Part shown: in pieces, positions 7,187 to 30,309 of the stretch
Numbering within the stretch: position 1 is the first letter of the stretch
How the letters are laid out: each line of letters opens with the position of its first letter
Assembly: GCA_021404905.1 (NCBI GenBank)
Contig: QWHN01000004.1
Location: 1-46,121, forward strand
Direction: 5' to 3'
Origin: Candidatus Saccharibacteria bacterium CPR2
GTDB taxonomy: Bacteria; Patescibacteriota; Saccharimonadia; Saccharimonadales; QWHN01
DNA: 46,121 bases
Program-made: the position numbers and the translations under genes
The notes under the pieces: generated by a model
Databases searched by the model: none
Seen by the model: the letters and a program-made list of their open reading frames with translations, nothing else
What the model was told of the DNA's origin: nothing

Positions 7187-9031
7187 TTATTTTCCAAGCA
7201 GGCTGCTACGCAAAGCACGTCGGCTTACGAGCCAGCTTCGGATACCCATTCCAAGAGCGCTTGTACTGAAGAAACCAGCTAGCACGCTACCGATACCTGT
7301 GTTAGGAAGCTCCTTAGCAGGCGGTGTTACGGGCGGCTGCTCTAAAGGTTGAACTTGTACTTTCGCGGTACATATATCTTCCTTGGTTTGCCCATCTACA
7401 TTGAAGAGCAATTTAGCAGTCACGTCGTAGTTGCCAGGTGCGGCGTAAGTGTGCTCAACTACGGTTTTATCAGTGTGGAACGGTTCTGTCCCATCACCAA
7501 AGTTATAGACGATTTTACTCAATGTTACTTTTCCTTCTGTAGTGTAAGTTACGGTAAATTTAAACTTGTCTCTAGCTAATTGTTCTACACTAAGCGCAGT
7601 ACATTCAAATATCGGTGTAACTGGCTTGTCGTCAACTTTAACCTTGGTTTTACAGTTGTCGCTGGTTACTTCTTTAACCTTGCCATCAACGTCTACCATA
7701 GCCCATACAGTAGCGGTGTATTCACCAGGCTTGCTGTATTTATGCTCAACTTCGTTTTTATCGGTTTCAAAGTTATCGGTTTTATCACCAAAGTCAAATT
7801 TGTAACCTACGATTTTTGCTCCACCCTGGGCCGTAGCTTTAGCAGTAAGTTTGTATGTATCTTTGCTAATTGCTACCGCGCTTAGCGCGTCACAAGAATA
7901 GACAGGTTTTTCACATGGTGGTTGGTCGATTTTTACAAGTGCTGTGTCGTTGACAGCACCATATCCATCTGGAGTCGCAAATGCGTTGTTCCAGAGTTCG
8001 TGTTGACCACATTGTAGCTCTGCAACATCGTTAACTTTAGCTTTGAATATAACCCACGCATTAATGTCTGGGTCATAGTTACCAATATCAACGTTTATTT
8101 GCTTACCGTTTGCCTGAATAGCACTGTCTGGATACGTATATCCGCTTGGGTAATTGCCGTTGTAAAGTTTTACACTTCCAGGAACTGGAGTCATGTTGGC
8201 TGGAACTTCATCGACAATCTTTACGCTTTTTAGCTCGGTCTTTCCGATATTGTCAAATTCAATTCCCCACTCAACTGTGTCACCTGGTTTAGCGGTGACT
8301 TCATTTTTCCAATCTTTTGAAGTTTGCCCGTCAAATCGGACTAATTTGTTAATTTTGTAGTGAGGCATATTAACTTTTACCTTAAAGGTAACAGCTACAG
8401 CGAATTCAAAGCATCCTTTGACATCACCAATACTTACACCTTTTCCTACAAGTTCGTCTGATACGGGCTGATTAATGCCGTTACCTACGAGTTTTGCAGA
8501 ACCAGGAACAAAGTCAAACTGGAAAAATCCGCCGTTATCGGCTTTTAGGTCAACAGTAGACCAAACAGATTTAGGCTGTGCATTATCTGCGTTTATAGTA
8601 GCTTTGGCCTGTCCGGATTTGATGCTGCCTTGTGGCAACTCCACCTTGACGTTGGTGTTTTTTGCAATTCCCTGACCACTGGCGTTAAGTGAAGGGTCCG
8701 CGCCGTTATGAATATAAACGTGCATGGTAATTTCATCACCTTGGCGAAGTTGGGTGAGTGTTGGGTAATATGTCTGATTTTGGTCGGCATATTGCCCGTT
8801 AAAGAATTGTCTCTCGTCACCAAATTTTGGAACATTGGTGAAAGAGTTAAAGGTTACGTAGTCGAAACCAGGGGTTCCGGGCCCGTTATAAACCTTTGTA
8901 GGCCGATCTGGCCCAAATCCTGCCACAGCAACGGCGGTTAAGCCGGCCAAAGCAGCAACTGCAATTAGAGCAAAAACTGCTTTCTTTGGCAGACGTGATA
9001 GAAAGTTAGAACGTATTTTAATGCGTTTCAT
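7187..9031 (-). CDS. Sortase-anchored surface protein with DUF11-like and two PKD domains, LPNTG motif
   Basis: Signal-like N-terminus; AKPGDTVEWGIEFDNIG..KIVDEVP (DUF11-like); two DFGD...H.Y..PG.Y PKD repeats; LPNTG + hydrophobic stretch + basic tail. The ATG at 9031 fits the AAGGAG spacing. Confidence 0.85.
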   Translation of the reverse strand: MKRIKIRSNFLSRLPKKAVFALIAVAALAGLTAVAVAGFGPDRPTKVYNGPGTPGFDYVTFNSFTNVPKFGDERQFFNGQYADQNQTYYPTLTQLRQGDEITMHVYIHNGADPSLNASGQGIAKNTNVKVELPQGSIKSGQAKATINADNAQPKSVWSTVDLKADNGGFFQFDFVPGSAKLVGNGINQPVSDELVGKGVSIGDVKGCFEFAVAVTFKVKVNMPHYKINKLVRFDGQTSKDWKNEVTAKPGDTVEWGIEFDNIGKTELKSVKIVDEVPANMTPVPGSVKLYNGNYPSGYTYPDSAIQANGKQINVDIGNYDPDINAWVIFKAKVNDVAELQCGQHELWNNAFATPDGYGAVNDTALVKIDQPPCEKPVYSCDALSAVAISKDTYKLTAKATAQGGAKIVGYKFDFGDKTDNFETDKNEVEHKYSKPGEYTATVWAMVDVDGKVKEVTSDNCKTKVKVDDKPVTPIFECTALSVEQLARDKFKFTVTYTTEGKVTLSKIVYNFGDGTEPFHTDKTVVEHTYAAPGNYDVTAKLLFNVDGQTKEDICTAKVQVQPLEQPPVTPPAKELPNTGIGSVLAGFFSTSALGMGIRSWLVSRRALRSSLLGK

Positions 9032-9066
9032 GACTATCATCTCCTTTCGTTAGATTAATTTATTTG

Positions 9067-17113: not shown

Positions 17114-18601
17114 ATGCCAAACCCGGAATCAACACAACAAACAGAAATACTACAAGAGAAGACTATAGAGCAAGAAACAGACAATCTGAGATTTAAAAGA
17201 ATCAAAAGTTTAATAGGTAAAGTAGCTTTATCGTTGACACTGGTAACTGGCGCGGGAATCGGAGCTGTTGCAGAAGAAGTAGTTAATCCACAGCCGGCAG
17301 AAGCTACAGAATTTGTTAATGATTATCCGAATTTAAATGCAAGCCCATATAATCCATCTGCCTATGAATGGTGGGTTGACGAAAACGGCAATGGCCATCC
17401 AGATGTTAACAATGAACTTATAAGTCCACGTAATTACTATTACCGTAATTGTACTGACGGTGCTGCATATTGGACAGCTAAATATACAGGAGTTAATGTT
17501 ACGGGATGGGGTAATGCTGTAAATTGGGATAATGCTGCTACTGCTTACACTGTAAAACCTGGTAATTCAAATAGCATTGAGCCGGGAGATATTGCCCAGA
17601 GTGACGATGATGGATACTATGGTCATGTAGGTTTTGTGGCAAATGTGGCTAAAGACGCAAGCGGTAACATTACAGCTGTTAATGTTGCGGAACTAAATAA
17701 AGTGGGTACGGGAGAATATAGTTACAGCACATATACATCAAAAAATGCTTCTGGAAAATTTACTCGTGGTGGCACAAAAGACTGGGATCATTTTATAGAT
17801 GTCAATGGAGCTGGCAAAGGGCTGAATGGCGATGTCTTGGGGGGTGGCAACAATGGTGGCAGTGGCGGAAATGGCAACGGCGGAGGCAGCAACGGCATTG
17901 ACACTATAGGTGTTTATAATCCCAATATTGCTACTTTCGATTTACGCAACAGCAACACAACAGGGATTCATGACGTAACACTAGCATATGGAAATATTGG
18001 AGCTGTGGCTCTAACCGGCGACTGGAACGGAGATGGCATTGACACCATCGGTGTCTATAACCCAAGTTTGGCAACATTCGATCTGCGCAATAGTAACACA
18101 ACTGGAAACCATGATATAACTCTTGCTTATGGTAATATTGGCGCGAAACCCCTAGTCGGAGATTGGAATGGTGACGGCATAGATACGATTGGAGTGTATA
18201 ATCCAACACTCGGTACATTTGATCTCAGAAATAGTAATACAACCGGCAATCATGATATAACCCTAGCGTACGGAAACATTGGTGCCATTCCGCTTGTAGG
18301 AGATTGGAACGGGGATGGTATAGACACGATCGGCGTGTACAACCCAAGTTTAGCCACCTTTGATCTACGAAATAGCAATACCACTGGTATCCACGACATT
18401 ACTCTAGCTTATGGAAATATAGGCGCCATCCCTGTGGTCGGAGATTGGAATGGTGACGGCATAGATACTATAGGTGTATATAACCCTACACTTGGCACCT
18501 TTGATCTACGAAATAGCAATACAACAGGTAACCATGACATCACTCTTGCATACGGAAATATTGGTGCCAAGCCGATTATAGGCGACTGGAACGGACAATA
18601 A
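17114..18601 (+). CDS. CHAP-domain peptidoglycan hydrolase with five 47-aa FG-GAP-like (GDWNGDG) repeats
   Basis: CHAP motifs RNCTD, GWGNA..W and YGHVGFV; Gly/Asn linker; five GIDTIGVYNP...GDWNGD repeats. Confidence 0.88.
   Translation: MPNPESTQQTEILQEKTIEQETDNLRFKRIKSLIGKVALSLTLVTGAGIGAVAEEVVNPQPAEATEFVNDYPNLNASPYNPSAYEWWVDENGNGHPDVNNELISPRNYYYRNCTDGAAYWTAKYTGVNVTGWGNAVNWDNAATAYTVKPGNSNSIEPGDIAQSDDDGYYGHVGFVANVAKDASGNITAVNVAELNKVGTGEYSYSTYTSKNASGKFTRGGTKDWDHFIDVNGAGKGLNGDVLGGGNNGGSGGNGNGGGSNGIDTIGVYNPNIATFDLRNSNTTGIHDVTLAYGNIGAVALTGDWNGDGIDTIGVYNPSLATFDLRNSNTTGNHDITLAYGNIGAKPLVGDWNGDGIDTIGVYNPTLGTFDLRNSNTTGNHDITLAYGNIGAIPLVGDWNGDGIDTIGVYNPSLATFDLRNSNTTGIHDITLAYGNIGAIPVVGDWNGDGIDTIGVYNPTLGTFDLRNSNTTGNHDITLAYGNIGAKPIIGDWNGQ
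17894..18598 (+). repeat. Five tandem 141-bp coding repeats
   Basis: 5 x 141 bp exactly fills 17894-18598; near-identical protein, many synonymous differences. Confidence 0.9.
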
Positions 18602-18602
18602 T

Positions 18603-18750
18603 TGGCGACCCCAGGGGGAGTCCGTCGTCAGCTTCGCTTCCTTTGGGGAAATCTTCGGCGATTCTCGAAAACCTTTGGTTTTCTGCGCCGTTGCCTTGAT
18701 TATCGAACCCCTGTTTTCCCGATGCAATCGGGATGCTTAGGCCACTAGAC
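18603..18750 (-). pseudogene. Degenerate tRNA relic / distal att site, with an 82-nt insertion in the T-arm
   Basis: 18603-18619 matches 30234-30250 at 16/17; 18702-18750 matches 30251-30300 at 41/50; the 5' acceptor strand is absent. Confidence 0.75.
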
Positions 18751-18926
18751 TAATAATTAAGTACTATGGCAACAAATATCTCTATCTAGCCATTTTCTTT
18801 AATTTGGTGAACTATCAAATATCGGATTGGAACCAACTCAAGAAGGAATTGGTCTCCTGGAATACTGTACTAGATAGACCGTCAGTTAAAAAGGTGCGTG
18901 AATTAGTACTGGCGTAGACTGGAACC

Positions 18927-19823
18927 TTATATAAGAGGTTGGTTGCGAGAATAGTGGTCCGAGTTTTTTGTATAAGTAATAGCTTGAACGATGTCTAACA
19001 GACTACTGCCTTCTAGTGAAACATTAGCGTTAGGATTAAGTAGTACGTGTAAATCCCTTGATTCAGGCAGGTACTCCGTAGTCCAAAGCACTGCTGATAG
19101 GTCCTTATACTCCTCTTTCTGAAAGTAGCCAATTTCAATCTGGCTACCATTTCTGGTAGTTATCGTGCTCCTGGATGAAACGCTACTCGTTGCGGTATTC
19201 GTTGCCGAGTTTATTGTTACCTGTATAGGACCGATGCCCATTACCATTTCTTCAACAATACTCATACCAGATTTACCCATTGCACTCATATAGTTGCTTT
19301 CGGGAAGGCAAAGAGCAATTACGTATGGTGTTGCTGTGTAGTCAATCCTTGATTGGTTGGAACGCAGCCTAGTTTTGAGCTGTTCGTTCTTGGAGTTTAT
19401 AGCTGTTGTTATTCTGCGTGCAATTTCTTCGTCAGGATAGTCATACAGTCTGCCGTCTAATCTTAACTCGGGAACGTCCGTAGGTGCTGGCACTACACAT
19501 TCAGCCACGTACGAATCCGCTAATATATCTGGCTCTCCTGCACCTGGTTTTCTAACCAATTGTTCAAGTAGTAGGAATCTAAGATTTAGCTCCCAAAGTC
19601 TACTGTAAAACTTTGCCTTTTCACGAAACTCGTTGATAAAGTTTGGCTCTGAGAAACCACCGACAGCTTGCCACCTCTTGTTTATTTCGGCTCTGATATC
19701 TGGTCTGATAGCCATCCAAACAAAGTCACGTTGGTAATCTGGATTATTCTTTACGGCATCGTCAATGTCCTTTTGGGACTTTGGGTCAATGCACTCAACT
19801 GGTTCAAATAAGTCTTGCGTCAT
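18927..19823 (-). CDS. Hypothetical protein, putative PD-(D/E)xK-like nuclease fold
   Basis: EPNFINEF...FYSRLWELNL, GEPDIL..YVAECV, PYVIAL, SAVLW, LNPNA pattern. The ATG at 19823 lies 1 nt after the upstream stop. The fold is an inference. Confidence 0.5.
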   Translation of the reverse strand: MTQDLFEPVECIDPKSQKDIDDAVKNNPDYQRDFVWMAIRPDIRAEINKRWQAVGGFSEPNFINEFREKAKFYSRLWELNLRFLLLEQLVRKPGAGEPDILADSYVAECVVPAPTDVPELRLDGRLYDYPDEEIARRITTAINSKNEQLKTRLRSNQSRIDYTATPYVIALCLPESNYMSAMGKSGMSIVEEMVMGIGPIQVTINSATNTATSSVSSRSTITTRNGSQIEIGYFQKEEYKDLSAVLWTTEYLPESRDLHVLLNPNANVSLEGSSLLDIVQAITYTKNSDHYSRNQPLI

Positions 19824-19824
19824 C

Positions 19825-20418
19825 TTAACCTCTGGCAATAAAATCTATACCCGTTTTTGCACTTGTTACCCATTCAGGTTCTTTGTCCTCAAAAATACGT
19901 TTATAGAAATTGTCTATTGCTTGCTCCAGTTCATTTACGTAATTTTTAGTTGCAATTACAAAATAACCCTTGCCGTCAATGCCCATAGGTGGGCAACCTT
20001 TAATTTTTCCGTTCATCTTGGCAACTTTGGCAACTGCAACTGGCGTATAGCTAATAGTGCCGTCTCGTGCTCTACGTTTGATGCGTGGGGCATAGGCGTG
20101 TGTCGCACTATGGCGAAGGTGCTGGTACAGACCCTGTTGCTTGGTGGTTTCGTCACGAATTATCTCGTCTAGACTTCTGAACTCATCTGCTGACGGTAAT
20201 CTAAATAGACAACGATAAAACCGTCTTTCCTCGGTCTTGCCAGTTTCGCCGTTAACTTTAGGTAAGAAAGCTCCTATTACCTCTGTGTAAGTCAGACAAC
20301 CAAGTGCTGTCAGGAAGTTATTCCCAGCACTAACTGAACGCTTTAGGTCAGTAATCATCCAGCCCTTAACTCGCTCATCAAAGAATTTTTTCGCCTCTGT
20401 TAATTTCTCGTCACTCAT
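19825..20418 (-). CDS. HEPN-like protein (RxxxxH)
   Basis: Mainly helical 197 aa; NFLTALGCLTYTEVIGAF helix and YQHLRHSATHAY (R-H-S-A-T-H = RX4H). Confidence 0.6.
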   Translation of the reverse strand: MSDEKLTEAKKFFDERVKGWMITDLKRSVSAGNNFLTALGCLTYTEVIGAFLPKVNGETGKTEERRFYRCLFRLPSADEFRSLDEIIRDETTKQQGLYQHLRHSATHAYAPRIKRRARDGTISYTPVAVAKVAKMNGKIKGCPPMGIDGKGYFVIATKNYVNELEQAIDNFYKRIFEDKEPEWVTSAKTGIDFIARG

Positions 20419-20436
20419 AGGTATATTATACCACTT

Positions 20437-20682
20437 TTACCCCTGTTTTTTCTCCTTGTACATATCGTAAAGTAGTTTGGCTAGTTCCTCGGCATCTTCT
20501 TTACGTTTGTCTCTAAGCACAAGTTCGTCTAATTGTTCCTTTGTTATCGGCTGGTAAACGGTTTTCATCATCAACACCAGCTTTGACAGTTTGCTGTATG
20601 CCGTCTGGTAGTCCAGTTCTTTATTAAACTTTTGCTTGTATAGCCTTTGAAATTCAGCTACGTCTGACTTAGTTAATTCCAT
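20437..20682 (-). CDS. Small helical hypothetical protein of a type I associate with CPR integrative elements
   Basis: 81 aa, MELTKSDVAEFQRLYKQKFNKELDYQTA; GGAGG RBS upstream. Confidence 0.6.
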   Translation of the reverse strand: MELTKSDVAEFQRLYKQKFNKELDYQTAYSKLSKLVLMMKTVYQPITKEQLDELVLRDKRKEDAEELAKLLYDMYKEKKQG

Positions 20683-20836
20683 ATTTTACCTCCACCCTAA
20701 TGTTAAAACGGATACGTATTCTGTACTGCAATTTTGAGCAGTTGACTAGCACTTATTTTATGGTAAAACATTTGATTTAACAGAGGTAATTTGCTATAAT
20801 TATTTACACATACATTAACAATTTGGGGGTAAAATT

Positions 20837-21466
20837 ATGGCAAATAATGACACCAAAAGCACAGCTAAAAAGTCATCATATCGTGGTGGGTACGAGCTAA
20901 AAGTCATCGGCGATTACGAGTTTGATGAAGTCAGTTCTGCGATGCAGAAGATGATTCGCCGAAATCAGGAGTATGAAGCCTGTTGGTGGGCTTACGTGCT
21001 ACACGATAGCGGTTATTACAAATACGTCTGGCGTAGGCTGATGATAATAGCTTCGGAAGATATAGGTAATGCTAACCCGATGGCAGCCATAATGGTAAAT
21101 ACCCTCAGACAGAATTATGAAGCCACTATGGACAGTAAGACCCGATTCGGTGGCAACGGTGCATTGTTCTTATTCCAAGCCATAATGTACCTCTGCTCCT
21201 CCGAAAAGGTACGTGAAGCCGATACTCTAGCCAACTTAGTTATCAAAGAGTTCAAGGACGGTAAACGCCTAGAGATACCAGAGGTCGCCGTAGATGTACA
21301 CACTGCTAGAGGCAAGGCTATACACGGTAAGTGGGAACAAGGCACGGACAAAGAAAAATCGGAGAGAGCGAAAAAATGGTACGAGGTATGGTCAGTCGTA
21401 ACCCCAGCCTCAAAAATGCCAGACAAGTACCTAGATAAGTGGAAAGAAGTGGAGGGTCATCTATGA
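20837..21466 (+). CDS. Stand-alone MgsA/RarA C-terminal-domain-like protein (no AAA+ ATPase module)
   Basis: SAMQKMIRR..EYEACWW, G..KYVWRRLMIIASEDIGNANP match the RarA C-terminal consensus; no Walker A/B in 209 aa. Confidence 0.75.
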   Translation: MANNDTKSTAKKSSYRGGYELKVIGDYEFDEVSSAMQKMIRRNQEYEACWWAYVLHDSGYYKYVWRRLMIIASEDIGNANPMAAIMVNTLRQNYEATMDSKTRFGGNGALFLFQAIMYLCSSEKVREADTLANLVIKEFKDGKRLEIPEVAVDVHTARGKAIHGKWEQGTDKEKSERAKKWYEVWSVVTPASKMPDKYLDKWKEVEGHL

Positions 21467-22356
21467 ACAATTTAGTAGAAGTAACGATACCCAAAGACTA
21501 CACAGCCGTCTTTGATAACTTGGACGTAGCTGAAAGCACCAGAGCCGATTATTGCTACCGATTGCCGTTGTTCGTGGAGTTCGTGAACACTCACGGCTTT
21601 ACACCAAATACGTACTTAGATTATAAAAAGCATTTGCGGACAATGCCGTGGTCAGTATCAACCAAGAATAAGCATCTGATAGTTGCGAGGGTTTTTCTAA
21701 AAGAACTGCACCGCCAAGGCTTAATTCCAACCGACATCACACATAACGTGAAGTCGTTCAAACAAAGCAAGAAGCACAAGAAGCGTGGGCTAAATGACTT
21801 AGAAGCTAAGCGACTAGCTACGTGGCTATCCGAGCGTCCAGATACGCCAGAAAACGACAGGCTAAAAGCTATCTTTTGCTTACTGCTATTACAAGGCTTG
21901 CGTCTTATTGAATTGTGCAGGCTTGACGTTGAAGACATAGACTTTGAAAACGAAGTGCTATATGTGTGGGGTAAAGGACAAGACGATAAAGACCCAATAA
22001 TACTACTGCCTCAAACTGTTTCCTGCTTACGACAATATCTAAAGAGTAACGGACTAAAAGAAGGTGCATTATTCAGGAGTAACAGTCACAGTCAAATGGG
22101 TCAAAGATTATCTACTCGTGGGCTTCGTGAAATTGTAATGGTCATATTCAAAATGCTGAACATCAACAAGACAGCTCACGGTACACGGCACTTCTACACT
22201 AGTCAGTTACTTCTGATTATGCCTGGACATTTAATAGATGTAGCCCTGTACACCAGACACCGTAGCATAGAGATGTTAAGAGTTTACGATAATCGCAACA
22301 AACAGGACTACACTTTAGATAAAGTCGTATCGGCGTTTGCAGGCATTAACTTTTAA
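21463..22356 (+). CDS. Tyrosine recombinase (Xer/integrase family)
   Basis: GLRLIEL (R), GKG (K), AHGTRH (HxxR), RHRSIEMLRVY (H..Y). The ATG at 21463 overlaps the upstream TGA. Confidence 0.9.
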   Translation: MNNLVEVTIPKDYTAVFDNLDVAESTRADYCYRLPLFVEFVNTHGFTPNTYLDYKKHLRTMPWSVSTKNKHLIVARVFLKELHRQGLIPTDITHNVKSFKQSKKHKKRGLNDLEAKRLATWLSERPDTPENDRLKAIFCLLLLQGLRLIELCRLDVEDIDFENEVLYVWGKGQDDKDPIILLPQTVSCLRQYLKSNGLKEGALFRSNSHSQMGQRLSTRGLREIVMVIFKMLNINKTAHGTRHFYTSQLLLIMPGHLIDVALYTRHRSIEMLRVYDNRNKQDYTLDKVVSAFAGINF

Positions 22357-22660: not shown

Positions 22661-24916
22661 ATGATTTTAAGCGACAATGAAAAAAGAGATGTTATAAAGT
22701 ACCTTGAAGCAGGAAAACCATTACCCGAAAAGTATCGCTTTCTACTCTTTGAAGATGACCGTGAAGTTGAACTACTATGGAACGGCAAAACTGACGAAGT
22801 TACCACCACCGTTCTACCATTCCAAGTAATTGAACAGATTGACGAACCAAGAAGTGACGATAGGATTGGCTTACAATCAACGTTATTTGATGATACTGGT
22901 CGGCAGATAACTGGCTGGACTAATAAGCTAATTTGGGGCGATAACAAGCTTATACTTTCTTCGCTAAAAAACGGCCCTATGAGAAAAGAAATAGAAGCTC
23001 AAGGCGGTCTCAAGCTAATTTACATTGACCCCCCGTTTGACGTAGGTGCGGACTTCTCAATGGAGTTAAAAATTGGTGAGGGTGACGATGAGGAAACATT
23101 TACTAAACGACCCTCAATAATTGAAGAGGTTGCATATAGGGATACTTGGGGTAAGGGTGCTGATAGTTTCATAGCTATGATTTACGAACGTTTAAGGTTG
23201 ATGAACGAACTTCTGGCAGACGATGGCACCATCTATGTCCACTGTGATTGGCGTGTAAGTGGATATATGCGTTTAGTTCTTGATGAAATTTTCGGGAAAA
23301 ATAACTTTGTTAATGAAATTATTTGGCAAAAAGTCAGAGCTTCAAAGGGGCAAGCAAAAGCATTTGGTAATGTACACGACACCATTTTTGCTTATAGAAA
23401 AAACGACTATAACAAGTTTAATAAACAGTATGGTGAGCACGATGAAGCTCGCCTCAAAAGCCACTATAATAATTGGGAAAAAGATGGCAGACAATACCAG
23501 TTAGCAGACTTTACACAAAAAGGACAAGGTGAACCTAAAGTATTCGGAGACAAAGGACTCCTTTATCCACCAACAGGAAAACACTGGATTTGGTCGCAAG
23601 AACGAATAGACGAAGGCTTAAAAGATGGTTTGATTATCTTTACTGACTCAGGAAAGCCTAGAGTAAAAAGGTATTTGGATACCTCGCAAGGTTCACCGAT
23701 TGAAGATATTTGGAATGATATTTTCCCAATAAACTCACAGGCGAAGGAATCGGTTGATTATCCTACCCAGAAGCCAGAAACACTTTTGGAAAGAATAATT
23801 AAAACTTCTTCTGACGAGGGAGACTTAATTGCAGACTTCTTTGTCGGTTCAGGTACAACACTTGCGGTCGCAGAAAAAATGGGACGCAAGTGGATAGGGT
23901 CAGATTTAGGCAAGTTCAGTATACATACATCTAGAAAAAGAATGATAGATGTTCAAAGAAAAAAGAAGAAAGATGGTGAAGATTTTAGGGCTTTTGAGAT
24001 TCTGAACGTTGGTAGATACGAGCGTGAAAATTATGTAGATATTAACGATGACCTTAGAGCAGAAGAAAGAGCAAAACAAGCAAAACACAAAGAAAATGCG
24101 TTCGTTCAACTAATACTATCCGCATATAAAGCAGAGCCCGTTGAGTCGTTTGTAAATTTTGTTGGCAAAAAACGCGACAGACTGGTAGCAGTTGGCCCCA
24201 TTTCAACACCTGTTTCGTCAAAACAAGTTCACGACATCGTTAGCGAATGTAAAGACAAAGGCATAACCAAAGTTGATATTCTAGGCTTTGATTATGAGAT
24301 GGGTCTAGATTTTCAAGAGTATGCAGACCAAGGAGTTGATGTTGCATTCCGAATTATTCCACGAGAAGTATTTGATAAAAAAGCCGTAGAACGAGGCCAC
24401 GTGAAGTTCTATGATGTTGCGTTTATTGAGGCTATGTCAATAGTTAAAGGCCCACAAAATAAAAAGGAATTAACCATAGAACTTACGGATTTCTCTGTGT
24501 TCTATAATCAAGATGATTCTGGTGAGGTGTCAGAAACTTTAAAGCCTGGTGGTTCAAAAGTAATAGTTGAAGATGGTCAGGTAGTTAAAATAACCAAAAA
24601 TAAAGACGGTGGCGGTGAGGTCAAAGAAATTATTACTAAAAAGTGGAGCGATTGGATAGACTACTGGGCGGTTGATTTTAACTTTGCTGATAGAAAAGAA
24701 ATCATAAAGGTGCTTGAGGGCGACGAAGAAAAAGAAGTCTGGACTGGTGATTATATCTTTGATAACGAATGGCAAAGTTTTAGGACAAAGAAAAATCGTA
24801 ATCTTGAACTGACTTCTGCCGCTAGAGAAATAGTTAGAGGAAAACACAAGGTCGCAATAAAAGTAGTTGATATTTTTGGCAACGACACAACAAAAGTTAT
24901 TGAGGTAGAGGTCTAG
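22661..24916 (+). CDS. mod: Type III R-M methyltransferase (Mod)
   Basis: LIYIDPPF, YPTQKPETLLERII, DFFVGSGTT; directly upstream of a Res gene. Confidence 0.92.
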   Translation: MILSDNEKRDVIKYLEAGKPLPEKYRFLLFEDDREVELLWNGKTDEVTTTVLPFQVIEQIDEPRSDDRIGLQSTLFDDTGRQITGWTNKLIWGDNKLILSSLKNGPMRKEIEAQGGLKLIYIDPPFDVGADFSMELKIGEGDDEETFTKRPSIIEEVAYRDTWGKGADSFIAMIYERLRLMNELLADDGTIYVHCDWRVSGYMRLVLDEIFGKNNFVNEIIWQKVRASKGQAKAFGNVHDTIFAYRKNDYNKFNKQYGEHDEARLKSHYNNWEKDGRQYQLADFTQKGQGEPKVFGDKGLLYPPTGKHWIWSQERIDEGLKDGLIIFTDSGKPRVKRYLDTSQGSPIEDIWNDIFPINSQAKESVDYPTQKPETLLERIIKTSSDEGDLIADFFVGSGTTLAVAEKMGRKWIGSDLGKFSIHTSRKRMIDVQRKKKKDGEDFRAFEILNVGRYERENYVDINDDLRAEERAKQAKHKENAFVQLILSAYKAEPVESFVNFVGKKRDRLVAVGPISTPVSSKQVHDIVSECKDKGITKVDILGFDYEMGLDFQEYADQGVDVAFRIIPREVFDKKAVERGHVKFYDVAFIEAMSIVKGPQNKKELTIELTDFSVFYNQDDSGEVSETLKPGGSKVIVEDGQVVKITKNKDGGGEVKEIITKKWSDWIDYWAVDFNFADRKEIIKVLEGDEEKEVWTGDYIFDNEWQSFRTKKNRNLELTSAAREIVRGKHKVAIKVVDIFGNDTTKVIEVEV

Positions 24917-24918
24917 CT

Positions 24919-27606
24919 ATGGCTCTGCACAAGGACTTTCCTAGAGACCCATACGCAATTCTAGACCCTAGTATCAGATGGTTTCCTGCTGATGAGGACT
25001 TGCGTGATAAAGGCCACGAAAAACTTTTACCCCCTCTTGTTGCTGAACTTAGAAAAAAAGTAAAAGATTGGCGGAACGATAATTACAAAGGTGCTAGTGA
25101 AACTTCACAAGCCCTGCTTAACTGGTGGTTCAAAGAGGACCACATACTTTATAACGCAGATGGTACATCATTCAACTTCCGATACTACTTTGCACAAAGA
25201 GAGGCCTTGGAGACTGTTGTGTGGCTCTATGAGGTCGCTCAAGTAAAAGACAAGTATGATTTGATACGCTACAACTCTACAGGTGTTATAAGTGCTGGTA
25301 TGTTCCCTGAGGAATGGCTAAGGTTTGTAATAAAGATGGCCACTGGTGCAGGTAAGACCAAGGTTATGAGTCTCGTGTTAGCTTGGGCTTACTTTCACAG
25401 GCTATATGAGGACGATTCACAGCTTGCAAAGAACTTTTTACTAATAACACCCAACGTTATCGTCTTTGAAAGAATAAAGAACGATTTTGAGGGCTTAAAG
25501 ATTTTTTATCAGGACCCTATATTGCCTGAAAACGGTTATAGAGGCCAAAACTGGCAAGACGACTTCCAAGTTACCCTGCACCTACAAGATGAACTACGCA
25601 ATATATCTGATACTGGCAACATATTCTTAACAAACATTCACAGGGTGTTTGAAAGCGATGTTAGAGCACCTAGAGCTGATGACGAAGATTCAAGTGCATA
25701 TTTTCTTGGTAGCAAGCCAGTTACCAAAACCAATGATTCAACTGTTGATTTAGGAATGATTGTCAGGGATATTGACGAACTTATCGTTATAAACGACGAA
25801 GCCCACCATATCTGGGACGAGAAGATGGCTTGGGCTAAGTCTATTCAGGATATTGACAATCAGCTAAAGCAAAAAGGCTCTGGTCTTGCCCTGCAACTTG
25901 ACGTTACTGCAACACCAAAAAAGCGAGACGGTTCAATTTTTGTGCAAACAATATCTGACTACCCGCTTGTTGAAGCAATACACCAAAGAATTGTTAAAAA
26001 TCCAGTTGTGCCTGACGCTGCAAGCCGAGGCAAGCTACAAGAGAATCAGAGTTCATTGTTCAGCGAAAAGTATCGTGACTTTATAAACCTTGGTGTTGAG
26101 GAATGGAGAAAGACTTACAAGACCCTAGAGCCTATGGGCAAAAAGTCAATTCTGTTCATTATGACTGACGATACTAAGAATTGTGATGAGGTCGCTGGCT
26201 ATATCAAAGATACCTTTTCAGACTTACGAAACGCTGTGCTGACGATTCACACCAACAAAAGCGGTGATATATCCGAAACTACAAGCGGCAAGAACAAAGA
26301 CGAGCTTGAACTACTACGCAAACAAGCTAACGAAATAGATAGCTGGGAAAGCCCTTTCAAGGTCATTGTGTCGGTGATGATGCTAAAAGAAGGTTGGGAC
26401 GTAAAGAACGTTACTACCATTGTGGGACTACGTCCTTATGCTGCCGATTCAAAGATTCTACCCGAACAAACTCTAGGTCGTGGTCTAAGGCGAATGTTCT
26501 TTGGTAATGACGAAGTTGAAGAATATGTGAGCGTCATTGGTACTCCTGCGTTTATGGAGTTCGTTGAATCTATCAAGGGTGAAGGCGTGATACTTGAGAA
26601 GAAAGCTATGGGAACTGGTGCTAAACCTATTGCTCCAACAGTTATTGAAGTAGACCGAGAAAATCCAAACAAAGATATTGAAAAGTTGGACATAGAGATT
26701 CCTGTAATGACACCACGTATTGAACGTGAGTATAAGAACCTTGCAGACCTAGACGTTACGAAGTTTGACAACAAGCGTGTTGCCGTAAAAACCTTTAGTG
26801 AAGAAGAAAAGCGAGAGATTGTATTCAAGGACGTTGTTGGCGAAAGCCATCATCACACAACTGTTCTTAACGGTAACCTTACGCCGAACTACCAGAGCGT
26901 TGTTGGATTCTTTGTGCAAGCCATAATGCGAGAACTGAGGCTCTTTGGTTGTTACGATATTCTATTCGGCAAAGTGAAGGCTTTCATTGAACATCAACTG
27001 TTTGTGGAAGATATTGAGCTGACCGACTTGAATATACTTAGAAACTTATCAGAAGTTGAATACATCAAGTTGATACGAGAGACTTTCAAGAAAGCCATAA
27101 ACGAACTTACCGTACAGGATAGTGGTGACACCGAAATAAAGAACTACATTAAGATTAGCGAATCACGACCCTTCGTGGTAAACGACAAAGGATTCTTACT
27201 TCCCAAGAAATCAGTGTTTAATAAAATTGTCGGTGACGGTGGTTTTGAGCTTGAGTTCTCTGGATTTCTGGAAAGTTGCGACGATATAATTTCGTTTTCA
27301 AAGAACTTCCAGAACAAGGAAGCCAATGCCCTTAGGATTGAGTACAAGAACTCGGAAGGCTTCATAGCTTATTACTACCCCGATTTCTTTGTAAAGACTA
27401 CACCTAAGACTGTTTACATAGTAGAGACAAAAGGTCGCGAAGAAGAAGATGACAAACTTAAGTTTGAGCGGCTTGAGAAATGGTGTGATGACGTTAATAA
27501 CAGACAAAGCAAAATGTCCTACAAAGCAATTTACGTTAAGCAGTCTGAGTGGAACAAAGACAAGTTGAAGAACTTTGATGAAGTAGTTCGTGTATTTGGG
27601 GATTAG
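24919..27606 (+). CDS. res: Type III R-M restriction subunit (Res; SF2 helicase + PD-(D/E)xK)
   Basis: YFAQREA, KMATGAGKT, NDEAHH, TATP, LKEGWDV, EQTLGRGLR; C-terminal YYPDF..IVETKG. Confidence 0.92.
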   Translation: MALHKDFPRDPYAILDPSIRWFPADEDLRDKGHEKLLPPLVAELRKKVKDWRNDNYKGASETSQALLNWWFKEDHILYNADGTSFNFRYYFAQREALETVVWLYEVAQVKDKYDLIRYNSTGVISAGMFPEEWLRFVIKMATGAGKTKVMSLVLAWAYFHRLYEDDSQLAKNFLLITPNVIVFERIKNDFEGLKIFYQDPILPENGYRGQNWQDDFQVTLHLQDELRNISDTGNIFLTNIHRVFESDVRAPRADDEDSSAYFLGSKPVTKTNDSTVDLGMIVRDIDELIVINDEAHHIWDEKMAWAKSIQDIDNQLKQKGSGLALQLDVTATPKKRDGSIFVQTISDYPLVEAIHQRIVKNPVVPDAASRGKLQENQSSLFSEKYRDFINLGVEEWRKTYKTLEPMGKKSILFIMTDDTKNCDEVAGYIKDTFSDLRNAVLTIHTNKSGDISETTSGKNKDELELLRKQANEIDSWESPFKVIVSVMMLKEGWDVKNVTTIVGLRPYAADSKILPEQTLGRGLRRMFFGNDEVEEYVSVIGTPAFMEFVESIKGEGVILEKKAMGTGAKPIAPTVIEVDRENPNKDIEKLDIEIPVMTPRIEREYKNLADLDVTKFDNKRVAVKTFSEEEKREIVFKDVVGESHHHTTVLNGNLTPNYQSVVGFFVQAIMRELRLFGCYDILFGKVKAFIEHQLFVEDIELTDLNILRNLSEVEYIKLIRETFKKAINELTVQDSGDTEIKNYIKISESRPFVVNDKGFLLPKKSVFNKIVGDGGFELEFSGFLESCDDIISFSKNFQNKEANALRIEYKNSEGFIAYYYPDFFVKTTPKTVYIVETKGREEEDDKLKFERLEKWCDDVNNRQSKMSYKAIYVKQSEWNKDKLKNFDEVVRVFGD

Positions 27607-28642: not shown

Positions 28643-30274
28643 ATGAAAGTCGTAATTTACACAAGGGTCTCTACGGTTGAGCAGGCTGAAAAGAATAAGA
28701 GCCTAGAGGTCCAGGAAAAAGCCTGCCGTGACTATGTCGCAAGACATAACTTAGGTGATGTTGTTGAGGTTTACAAAGAAGAAGGAGAAAGTGCCAAGAC
28801 AGCTAATCGTACTCAATTAAAAAGAATGTTAAGGGAGTTGGCTAGCGACCATAAAGAAGTCAGGCATTTGATAGTCTTTAAGTTGGATAGGCTGGCAAGA
28901 CGAACAGAGGACCACATAGCATTAGCAAACATACTTGTTAAGCTGGGAGTTAAACTACACTCCGCTACAGAAGTCCTTGAGGACACACCGTCAGGTAAGT
29001 TAATGGAGCATATACTTGCATCGTTTGCTGAGTTTGATAATTCAGTACGTTCTGAGCGTTCAGCCAAAGGAATGATGGCTAGATTACAAGAAGGTGGCTG
29101 GGTACACTTAGCACCGATTGGCTACAGAAATATCAAGGACTCACTAGGTCGTCCTACTGTAGAGCCTGATGAAATGGCTAAACCAGTACAAAAATTCCTT
29201 AAAGACTTTGCAAAAGGATTATACAACCAAGACAACGCTGCTGAGTTAGCAGCAACAAAGTACAAAATAAAGGCCAGAAGCTACAGTATAGTCAACGGTA
29301 AACGTAAGTACAGTAAAAACTACGATAAACCTGTTGGGAAAAGCACGGTCTACTCTATGCTTAGAAATCCTTTGTATGCAGGATACGTAACCGGCAAAGG
29401 TATTGACGAACCAATCAAGGGTCTGCATATGCACAATGCTCTGATAACAAAAGATGAGTTTGATGCAATTCAGATGATATTAACTGGTACCGATAAGCCA
29501 GTGTTGCGACCCTATGGGGTTAATAAAGAATACTGGCCATTACGTAGGTACTTACGTTGTGCTTACTGCAATAGCCATCTTACAGGTAGCAGGTCTAAAG
29601 GTAGAAATGATACTTATGAGTACTACCACTGCACAAGGTGCAAGGGTGTAAAAGTTAAAGGCGAGACATATAAGCACCTTACCTTGCCTCGTCAGACTGT
29701 ACACGATGCTTATCTGAGACTTATGGAGGGCGTTCAGCCCTCCGTAGGTGCCTTGCGAGCCTTCAAAGAGATTGTTGTGCGTAAATGGAATGCTGATTAT
29801 GCTGCTACCATTGCAAGACGTGGCAGTGTTGAGGCTGACATTTCTGCACTGGACAAGAAAAAGTCTGACTTAATTGAGATGTGTCGTGTTAGTACGATAA
29901 CTGAGGACGAGCTAAAGAACGAGAGAGACAAGATTGCCATTGACCGCTCCAGACTTGAACTAGAGCTCTTAGAAATCAAACAAGAGTTTATTGACACTGA
30001 CCGTGTACTAAATTTGGCTATAGATTTTATGGCAAACGTTGCCAGTATGTGGTCTACAGCACAGGACGACGACAGAGTACGGTTCCAATATATGGCTTTA
30101 CCTGAGGGTGTGACGATAAACGCAAACAAAAAATTTGGAACCGTCAAAATTGGTCTGCCATTTAAGCAAGCTAAAGTGTTAGAAGCCAAGTTATCTGCAT
30201 CAAAAAAGACCCAAAGTAACTCTGAGTCTTTTATGGTGACCCCAGGGGGAATCGAACCCCCGTTTTCAGGATGA
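28643..30274 (+). CDS. Large serine recombinase (integrase)
   Basis: YTRVST (catalytic Ser), KLDRLAR, recombinase domain APIGY, Zn ribbon CAYC...YYHCTRC, coiled coil; the last 13 codons are antisense to the tRNA. Confidence 0.93.
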   Translation: MKVVIYTRVSTVEQAEKNKSLEVQEKACRDYVARHNLGDVVEVYKEEGESAKTANRTQLKRMLRELASDHKEVRHLIVFKLDRLARRTEDHIALANILVKLGVKLHSATEVLEDTPSGKLMEHILASFAEFDNSVRSERSAKGMMARLQEGGWVHLAPIGYRNIKDSLGRPTVEPDEMAKPVQKFLKDFAKGLYNQDNAAELAATKYKIKARSYSIVNGKRKYSKNYDKPVGKSTVYSMLRNPLYAGYVTGKGIDEPIKGLHMHNALITKDEFDAIQMILTGTDKPVLRPYGVNKEYWPLRRYLRCAYCNSHLTGSRSKGRNDTYEYYHCTRCKGVKVKGETYKHLTLPRQTVHDAYLRLMEGVQPSVGALRAFKEIVVRKWNADYAATIARRGSVEADISALDKKKSDLIEMCRVSTITEDELKNERDKIAIDRSRLELELLEIKQEFIDTDRVLNLAIDFMANVASMWSTAQDDDRVRFQYMALPEGVTINANKKFGTVKIGLPFKQAKVLEAKLSASKKTQSNSESFMVTPGGIEPPFSG

Positions 30275-30309
30275 AAACCTGATGTCCTAGGCCACTAGAC
30301 GATGGGGCC
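30234..30309 (-). tRNA. tRNA-Glu (TTC)
   Basis: GGCCCCATCGTCTAGTGGCCTAGGACATCAGGTTTTCATCCTGAAAACGGGGGTTCGATTCCCCCTGGGGTCACCA: 76 nt, cloverleaf, encoded CCA. Confidence 0.97.

Follow-up and report, generated by a model that had tools for sequence, protein, structure and literature searches.

The 46,121-nucleotide (nt) stretch of contig QWHN01000004.1 from Candidatus Saccharibacteria bacterium CPR2 (hereafter the window) contains three tightly packed genes, here termed g81, g197 and g298, which we consider to be, with reasonable probability, separate cassettes stacked head to tail in a defence island rather than the parts of one system. The island contains a type III restriction-modification (R-M) system, a putative nuclease (g298) that is distantly similar to PD-T7-5 and PD-T7-1, and a member of an unannotated R-x4-H family (g197); g197 and g298 are probably anti-phage genes. 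In contrast with this interpretation is the initial annotation of the DNA, which viewed the trio as a candidate defence module in which a HEPN RNase is coupled to a nuclease-like protein, with the 81-amino-acid (aa) product as a possible regulator or antitoxin. The gene anatomy described there was accurate, as the open reading frame (ORF) list contains three co-oriented minus-strand frames, in the order g81, g197, g298, spanning 20682-18927:

20437-20682, minus strand: g81, 81 aa, charged and probably helical; first gene of the trio, taken from the ORF list
19825-20418, minus strand: g197, 197 aa, uncharacterised R-x4-H family; HEPN-like putative RNase
18927-19823, minus strand: g298, 298 aa from ATG, distantly PD-T7-5/PD-T7-1-like; putative PD-(D/E)xK-type nuclease

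The gap between the stop codon of g197 and the next ATG is indeed 1 nt (TAA-G-ATG in the sequence), and 18 nt separate the stop of g81 from the start of g197. An alternative TTG start at 19838 would give g298 a length of 303 aa, overlapping g197.

The distribution of the two larger genes argues against a coupled module. In a sample of 400 genomes from the phylum, three others matched the g197 profile and one the g298 profile, and no genome contained both. Similarly, when all the fetched loci were searched with hmmsearch, there was no g298-family match in ~16 distinct other g197 loci and no g197-family match in the seven g298 loci. Neighbourhood conservation, which had been put forward as a check on the module, thus speaks against it, as neither family accompanies the other outside one close relative. 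In that relative (loci L038-L040) the trio does recur, with 2 nt between g197 and g298 and with identities to the window of 85% for g197, 75% for g298 and roughly 75% for g81; L038 carries g197-g298, and g81 is found upstream in L039 and L040, which are other contigs with the same protein. It should be emphasized that this copy, located upstream of a PAS histidine kinase, occupies a different chromosomal place from the trio in the window, and that the retention of all three genes with 1-2-nt spacing weighs against full independence. There may therefore be a functional link within this clade, where the trio may travel as a block. Against such a link, locus L041 contains a 57%-identical g298 homologue at the same site as the L038 pair, downstream of a tRNA-Glu(CUC) and before the PAS kinase, but here the gene is alone and the position of g81-g197 is occupied by a divergent Schlafen/AlbA_2 gene. 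The kinase and the response regulator that flank the site in L041 are 65% and 84% identical, respectively. Comparison of L041 with L038 at this one site thus indicates that g298 has been retained and the genes upstream of it replaced, as expected of independent cargo inserted at a hot spot linked to a tRNA. This hot spot occupies 4370-7124 of L041 and 1-1933 of L038; the genome from which the window derives has an empty site at the equivalent position (contig 9, L047 3969-4236).

Profile comparisons support the view that g298 represents a distant, nuclease-like branch of the PD-T7-5/PD-T7-1 family. Among the PADLOC models the protein matched those for PD-T7-5 (E 1e-9) and PD-T7-1 (E 3.5e-6), and in PHROGs it matched phrog_8571 (1.2e-9). 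The similarity to PD-T7-5 is significant in every member of the g298 family, with all 23 aligned proteins matching (best E 7.5e-15), while 17 of the 23 matched PD-T7-1 (best 8.8e-10). With respect to g298, the earlier view that the genes were not recognizable as a named system is thus contradicted by the PADLOC models, whereas the same run returned no match for g197 or g81. PD-T7-1 and PD-T7-5 are single-gene anti-phage systems that were selected in E. coli (Vassallo et al. 2022, PMC9519451); both have been listed with a predicted PD-(D/E)xK domain (PMC10952713) or, alternatively, with a weak RmuC-like domain (PMC10270631). In addition to the profile similarity, the likeness of g298 to these proteins extends to a predicted acidic site of the PD-(D/E)xK type and to a tendency to be found alone in islands, prophages or mobile elements. 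Each locus has a different set of genes around its g298 homologue, consistent with autonomy, and PADLOC recognized nothing among ten of these neighbours. In contrast with its named relatives, g298 is shorter, derives from Saccharibacteria, aligns only in part and has another residue in place of the canonical ExK lysine.

The conserved residues of the g298 family point to a candidate active site. The family is small, comprising 29 clusters in a word-indexed search, and a second such search with the family profile reached no distant relatives; the alignment, however, included two distant homologues from the phylum sample, in G091 (27% identity) and G192 (22%). Down to 22% identity E78, P98-D99, E108, R137 and K145 are invariant. 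In the AlphaFold2 (AF2) model (predicted local distance difference test score, pLDDT, of 88) these residues map to a helix (72-84), two strands (100-102 and 106-110) and a second helix (131-154), which follows the strands and carries both R137 and K145. The predicted layout is that of a PD-(D/E)xK site whose lysine is supplied by the following helix and not by an ExK triplet. Most likely, g298 would act alone as a Mg-dependent PD-(D/E)xK-type nuclease, in which E78, D99 and E108 would form the acidic site and the helix would contribute either K145 or R137; the target could be phage DNA or, in an abortive response, the DNA of the host.

Some features of g298 are at odds with this assignment. 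The alignment to the PD-T7-5 model is limited to positions 131-234 of 346 (~104 positions, ~30%), and that to the PD-T7-1 model to positions 152-341 of 452; the relatives in G091 and G192 extend over PD-T7-5 positions 35-233. The lysine of the ExK motif is replaced in the family by V, G, T or I. Furthermore, comparison of the g298 model with the PDB by Foldseek gave nothing significant, the restriction enzyme SfiI being ranked second with an E of 1.0, and thus the assignment of the fold derives from the family relationship and the motif. The description of g298 as a nuclease-like PD-(D/E)xK protein is therefore upheld by the relation to PD-T7-5/PD-T7-1 and the invariant E, PD, E and K, but is not matched by a significant nuclease fold. 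No Pfam or NCBIfam family, including Pfam PDDEXK, matched g298, and PDB sequence searches with the single sequence and the profile were also negative. When g298 and g197 were compared by tblastn with phage and plasmid collections, nothing was retrieved except a ParR-like match in Kosakonia (E 0.4), which hhalign showed to be due to chance.

The second protein, g197, contains the sequence RHSATH (R102-x4-H107), which had been viewed as a HEPN signature. A lone R-x4-H in one protein means little, since the motif is expected by chance at ~0.34 per 197 aa in the long frames of the window and is present in 17 of 40 of these frames. Within the g197 family, however, invariance is confined to R102 and H107, which are retained in 118 of 118 diverse relatives, and the motif is thus a true family signature. 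At least 90% conservation is displayed by D24, N34, A38, E46, G49, Y98 and Y109, with the E46 position occupied by E in 112 and D in five proteins (acidic in 117/118) and the D24 position by D in 113. In the region of the motif the consensus reads Y-x3-R-C-G-L-x-H-E-Y. Directly after the Arg, C is the most frequent residue (70 of the 118), ahead of N (19), H (14) and S (13); g197 itself and its close family have His here. When 1.84 billion representative proteins were scanned in full by HMMER with an 18-sequence profile, the family proved to be rare, consisting of 226 clusters at 50% identity (E up to 1e-3). No match to g197 was evident in Pfam, NCBIfam, PHROGs, PADLOC or the sequences of the PDB. 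Three relatives are longer, which hints at partner domains: P0182 (501 aa), whose N-terminal part contains YELRSKIAHG, a second R-x4-H segment read by eye; P0058 (410 aa), with a C-terminal IDSRHTFFSH; and P0160 (338 aa), with N-terminal zinc ribbons, the latter two features also being seen by eye and unconfirmed by profile. PDB searches with the extra domains of P0182 and P0058 retrieved nothing.

We regard g197 as a plausible, putative HEPN-type RNase, a reading towards which the evidence tips modestly. The R-x4-6-H pattern that describes HEPN domains is present, as is an upstream conserved acidic residue (E46, D24), although the latter was not seen in the Ex3[K/R] form. Helices predominate in the AF2 model (pLDDT 89.9), and the motif helix is followed by an inserted sheet of four strands. 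HEPN RNases that are linked to R-M systems (PrrC/RloC, ApeA, Abi2/AbiD/AbiF and others) resemble g197 in the R-x4-H motif, the upstream acidic residue and the helical build, and g197-family genes likewise occur between the subunit genes of type I R-M systems or beside methyltransferases. None of these RNases, however, is matched by g197 in sequence or profile, and g197 differs further in having no ABC-ATPase or other sensor domain, in the β-sheet insert and in the Cys that usually follows the Arg.

Several results lend no support to a HEPN identity. The Cys after the motif Arg in 70 of the 118 relatives contrasts with the N, D or H that is usual at this position (PMC3710099). Comparison of the g197 model with the PDB by Foldseek gave nothing below an E of 1. 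The only protein to recur among the matches was AbiV, a lactococcal HEPN RNase (PDB 9bj5, 9bj6 and 9bj7; E 2.7-9, template modelling score 0.26-0.41), and none of these matches was significant. AbiV is similar in size to g197 (~200 aa), but superimposes with a root-mean-square deviation above 10 Å, and the AbiV family typically lacks the motif His (PMC3710099), which g197 retains. No PDB sequence was matched by single g197 sequences or by profiles, and Pfam and PADLOC scans of the 118 members returned one chance-level match each (HEPN_Apea, 0.0059; CARF_HEPN, 0.0023). When the g197 family was compared by hhalign with AbiV-HEPN and ApeA-HEPN alignments, which were built here from genome matches, the probability was <1%; it should be emphasized, however, that a control comparison of AbiV with ApeA also failed to link these two true HEPN families, and the negative test of g197 thus carries no weight. 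Searching the g197 family by hmmsearch with the thin AbiV and ApeA HEPN profiles yielded noise. Thus, of the HEPN identity initially proposed for g197, the invariant R-x4-H, the helical model and the R-M context are consistent with the claim, but no significant sequence, profile or fold match accompanies them.

It could be argued that g197 is not a nuclease at all, but a non-catalytic accessory or regulator of R-M systems, or a factor belonging to phages or mobile elements, in which the R and H serve binding or structure. Such a role would sit well with the lack of a significant match to any HEPN profile or structure, with a β-sheet module after the motif helix that is atypical for HEPN, and with the nearest predicted-structure neighbours in BFVD, which are two uncharacterised phage proteins (E 1.3e-3 and 2.4e-2). 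Nevertheless, catalytic sites typically show what is seen here, namely an R and an H, four residues apart, that are strictly invariant among relatives at ~20% identity and are accompanied by conserved acidic and Tyr residues; the gene neighbourhoods also resemble those of HEPN RNases known to be linked to R-M systems (PMC3710099), and the silence of the profile tests says little when these are unable to join two true HEPN families. The second R-x4/5-H segments of the multidomain relatives P0182 and P0058, which were identified by eye only, also favour the nuclease; tandem HEPN domains are common, and these segments are thus a mild point for HEPN. A non-catalytic g197 therefore appears unlikely, though it deserves some weight. 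The closest of the BFVD neighbours is a protein of an Arthrobacter phage.

The g197 family is repeatedly located at R-M loci. Approximately eight of 16 distinct loci, the window included, place the family in or beside genes of R-M systems or DNA methyltransferases. Locus L023 runs from hsdM through Fic, two short genes and hsdS to the g197 homologue (with a 4-nt overlap), a gene encoding 344 aa, and hsdR; in L027, hsdS is followed by the gene of an SDH-type protease, and then by the g197 homologue and hsdR (4-nt overlap). The g197 homologue of L014 overlaps the end of an hsdS-type gene, that of L025 is beside an N6_N4 methyltransferase and an Mrr_N protein, and that of L004 is in an island with Eco57I-type methylases, an SNF2 helicase and a PLD protein. 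In L001 and L021 a fusion of LexA, S24 and methyltransferase modules adjoins the homologue. Against this pattern, about half of the g197-family loci have no R-M genes nearby; the homologues of these loci are near resolvases (L003, L019), in an array of small co-oriented genes (L030) or among housekeeping genes (L013, L018, L029). At least 16 HEPN clades are linked to R-M systems, an association that has been interpreted by analogy with PrrC/EcoprrI (Anantharaman et al. 2013, PMC3710099). By the same logic g197, as a HEPN-type metal-independent RNase, may provide a second line behind restriction that is silent until released when restriction is overwhelmed or inhibited. The R-x4-H motif, the helical build and the repeated placement in or beside R-M systems are the grounds for this proposal. 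A further possibility is that the g197 family represents a hitherto unrecognised, minimal HEPN-type effector that R-M loci of types I and III have repeatedly recruited as a back-up without a sensor.

Two other observations were made at these loci. The fusions of L001 (4163-5710) and L021 (1951-3543), which are two unrelated metagenome contigs, combine a LexA DNA-binding domain, an S24 peptidase and a DNA methyltransferase in one protein of 515-530 aa, which suggests a methyltransferase that responds to DNA damage. In L030 (contig Ga0114930_10000003, 541 kb) the g197 homologue is located in a long, phage-like array of small co-oriented genes; together with the Arthrobacter phage neighbour in BFVD, this suggests that the family may also be carried by phages.

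The remaining member of the trio, g81, is poorly conserved with its neighbour. No match below an E of 0.01 was identified in Pfam, NCBIfam, PHROGs or PADLOC, and homologues were found only in L039 and L040. The genes immediately upstream of other g197 homologues show no relationship either to g81 or among themselves: some encode a Zn-ribbon protein of 65 aa, a protein of 128 aa or a membrane protein of 268 aa, and others are hsdS or a protease gene. The Zn-ribbon-like protein of 65 aa is encoded in L001 by a separate gene that overlaps the g197 homologue by 4 nt. The cognate partner of a type II toxin would be expected to be conserved with the toxin family, and g81 is not; a role for the 81-aa protein as a conserved partner of the 197-aa family is thus not supported. 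In pairs of HEPN toxin and small antitoxin, such as HEPN-MNT and RnlA-RnlB, a small gene is similarly located directly upstream of the RNase, but g81 is neither a nucleotidyltransferase nor a known antitoxin.

Could g81 and g197 nevertheless constitute a toxin-antitoxin-like module, with an RNase toxin and its inhibitor or autoregulator, and g298 as unrelated cargo? The small ORF is 18 nt upstream of the putative toxin, is kept with g197 in L039 and L040, and is followed by a spacer that is nearly all palindrome (GGTATAATATACC, window 20421-20433, minus strand) and includes a perfect TATAAT; in addition, most other g197 homologues have an upstream gene that is tightly packed or overlapping. 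The palindrome with its TATAAT could be an internal promoter or operator, and a TATAAT is found at the corresponding position in L038. A scan for promoters and terminators gave results no better than those for shuffled sequence, and an Rfam scan of 18400-21000 returned no match. As the upstream genes of other family members share no relationship with g81 or each other, and g81 matches no antitoxin or DNA-binding family, we consider this module doubtful. The grander proposal, that g81, g197 and g298 together constitute a single defence system, with an RNase and a DNase cooperating under a small regulator or antitoxin, draws on the common orientation and gaps of 18 nt and 1 nt, on the nuclease-type conserved residues of both larger proteins, and on the L038-L040 relative, where the same order and a 2-nt spacing at ~75-85% identity in a different genomic location indicate that the three genes have been kept or transferred together. 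Defence islands, however, usually have unrelated systems tightly packed. The lack of co-occurrence in ~23 other loci and 400 genomes, the solitary g298 homologue of L041 at the same chromosomal site, the absence of a g81 homologue beside any other g197 homologue and the single-gene action of the named systems closest to g298, PD-T7-5 and PD-T7-1 (PMC9519451), together render a three-gene system improbable. We would give equally little credence to a version confined to the clade, in which g81 restrains the g197 RNase, which is translationally coupled to the g298 DNase, such that one trigger would free an attack on both RNA and DNA. Within the stacked island that we favour, g81 would be a lineage-specific small protein, perhaps a local regulator or inhibitor of g197, a role for which support is limited to this clade.

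The surroundings of the trio support a defence-island or mobile-element setting, in agreement with the initial annotation, as a type III R-M system, two recombinases and a tRNA-Glu are located in the same region:

20837-21466, plus strand: MgsA/RarA C-terminal-like protein, 209 aa (Pfam MgsA_C 3.2e-14; phrog_33349 8.9e-23)
21439-22356, plus strand: tyrosine recombinase (Pfam Phage_integrase 2e-16; NCBIfam XerA-type 4e-26)
22661-24916, plus strand: type III R-M methyltransferase Mod (N6_N4_Mtase 1.1e-42; PADLOC MTase_III 3.3e-113)
24919-27606, plus strand: type III R-M restriction subunit Res (ResIII 1.7e-16; PADLOC REase_III 1.4e-18)
28643-30274, plus strand: large serine recombinase (Resolvase 2e-33; Recombinase 4e-07), 3' end overlapping the tRNA-Glu
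30234-30309, minus strand: tRNA-Glu(UUC), identified by ARAGORN
18603-18735, no strand assigned: degenerate direct repeat of the 3' part of the tRNA-Glu, just beyond g298

The Mod and Res genes are adjacent, 2 nt apart, as expected of a type III R-M system, and both were matched by Pfam and PADLOC models. The MgsA/RarA C-terminal-like gene is divergent from g81 and overlaps the gene of the tyrosine recombinase, while a gene encoding a 244-aa protein of unknown function lies between Res and the large serine recombinase. The tRNA-Glu(UUC) is the probable integration target. The tRNA-Glu-like repeat, which comprises D8 (18603-18622 versus 30234-30253, 90%) and D1 (18702-18735 versus 30251-30284, 79%), is a possible distal boundary of the island. 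In two relatives, G405 and G409, a homologue of the window gene at 7187-9040 is 0.4-0.7 kb from tRNA-Glu(UUC), compared with 21 kb in the window, and thus ~9-30 kb of the window may be variable or inserted; this reading is tentative because the homology of the G405 and G409 genes to the window gene is weak (28-39%). In the reading that we favour, the trio would be cargo of a variable, tRNA-Glu-linked region that carries recombinases and a type III R-M system. Between 9000 and 15000 the window contains blocks with a G+C content of 0.51-0.62, compared with ~0.40-0.42 for the genome, which is of the Saccharibacteria type and 0.83 Mb in size.

Saccharibacteria have genomes of ~0.8 Mb and live on host bacteria, and each defence gene that they keep is thus informative. 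This study extends the reach of PD-T7-5/PD-T7-1 relatives far outside Enterobacteria, with E78, D99, E108 and K145 as the candidate active site. Of the two leads the R-x4-H family, which comprises 226 clusters and has no model in Pfam, NCBIfam, PHROGs or PADLOC, is of greater interest; as it is repeatedly wedged into R-M operons, it is a reasonable candidate for a new R-M-linked abortive-infection effector. The example of the trio also indicates that tight spacing and a shared orientation within an island are insufficient to call a system.

A conserved small frame is located downstream of g298:

18804-18917, plus strand: 37-codon frame, convergent with g298, encoding the peptide LVNYQISDWNQLKKELVSWNTVLDRPSVKKVRELVLA; small ORF or gene remnant

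The frame ends 12 nt from the stop of g298, and was not found downstream of distant g298 homologues. In the three related lineages, however, the peptide is conserved (92% in L038-L040 and 71% in L041/L042, with counterparts at 1533-1643 in L038 and 6910-7020 in L041), and its DNA is better conserved than g298 itself. The conserved 125 nt after g298 are single-copy in this genome, which argues against their being part of a multi-copy tRNA-tail element, and the frame may represent a small ORF, the remnant of a gene or a site.

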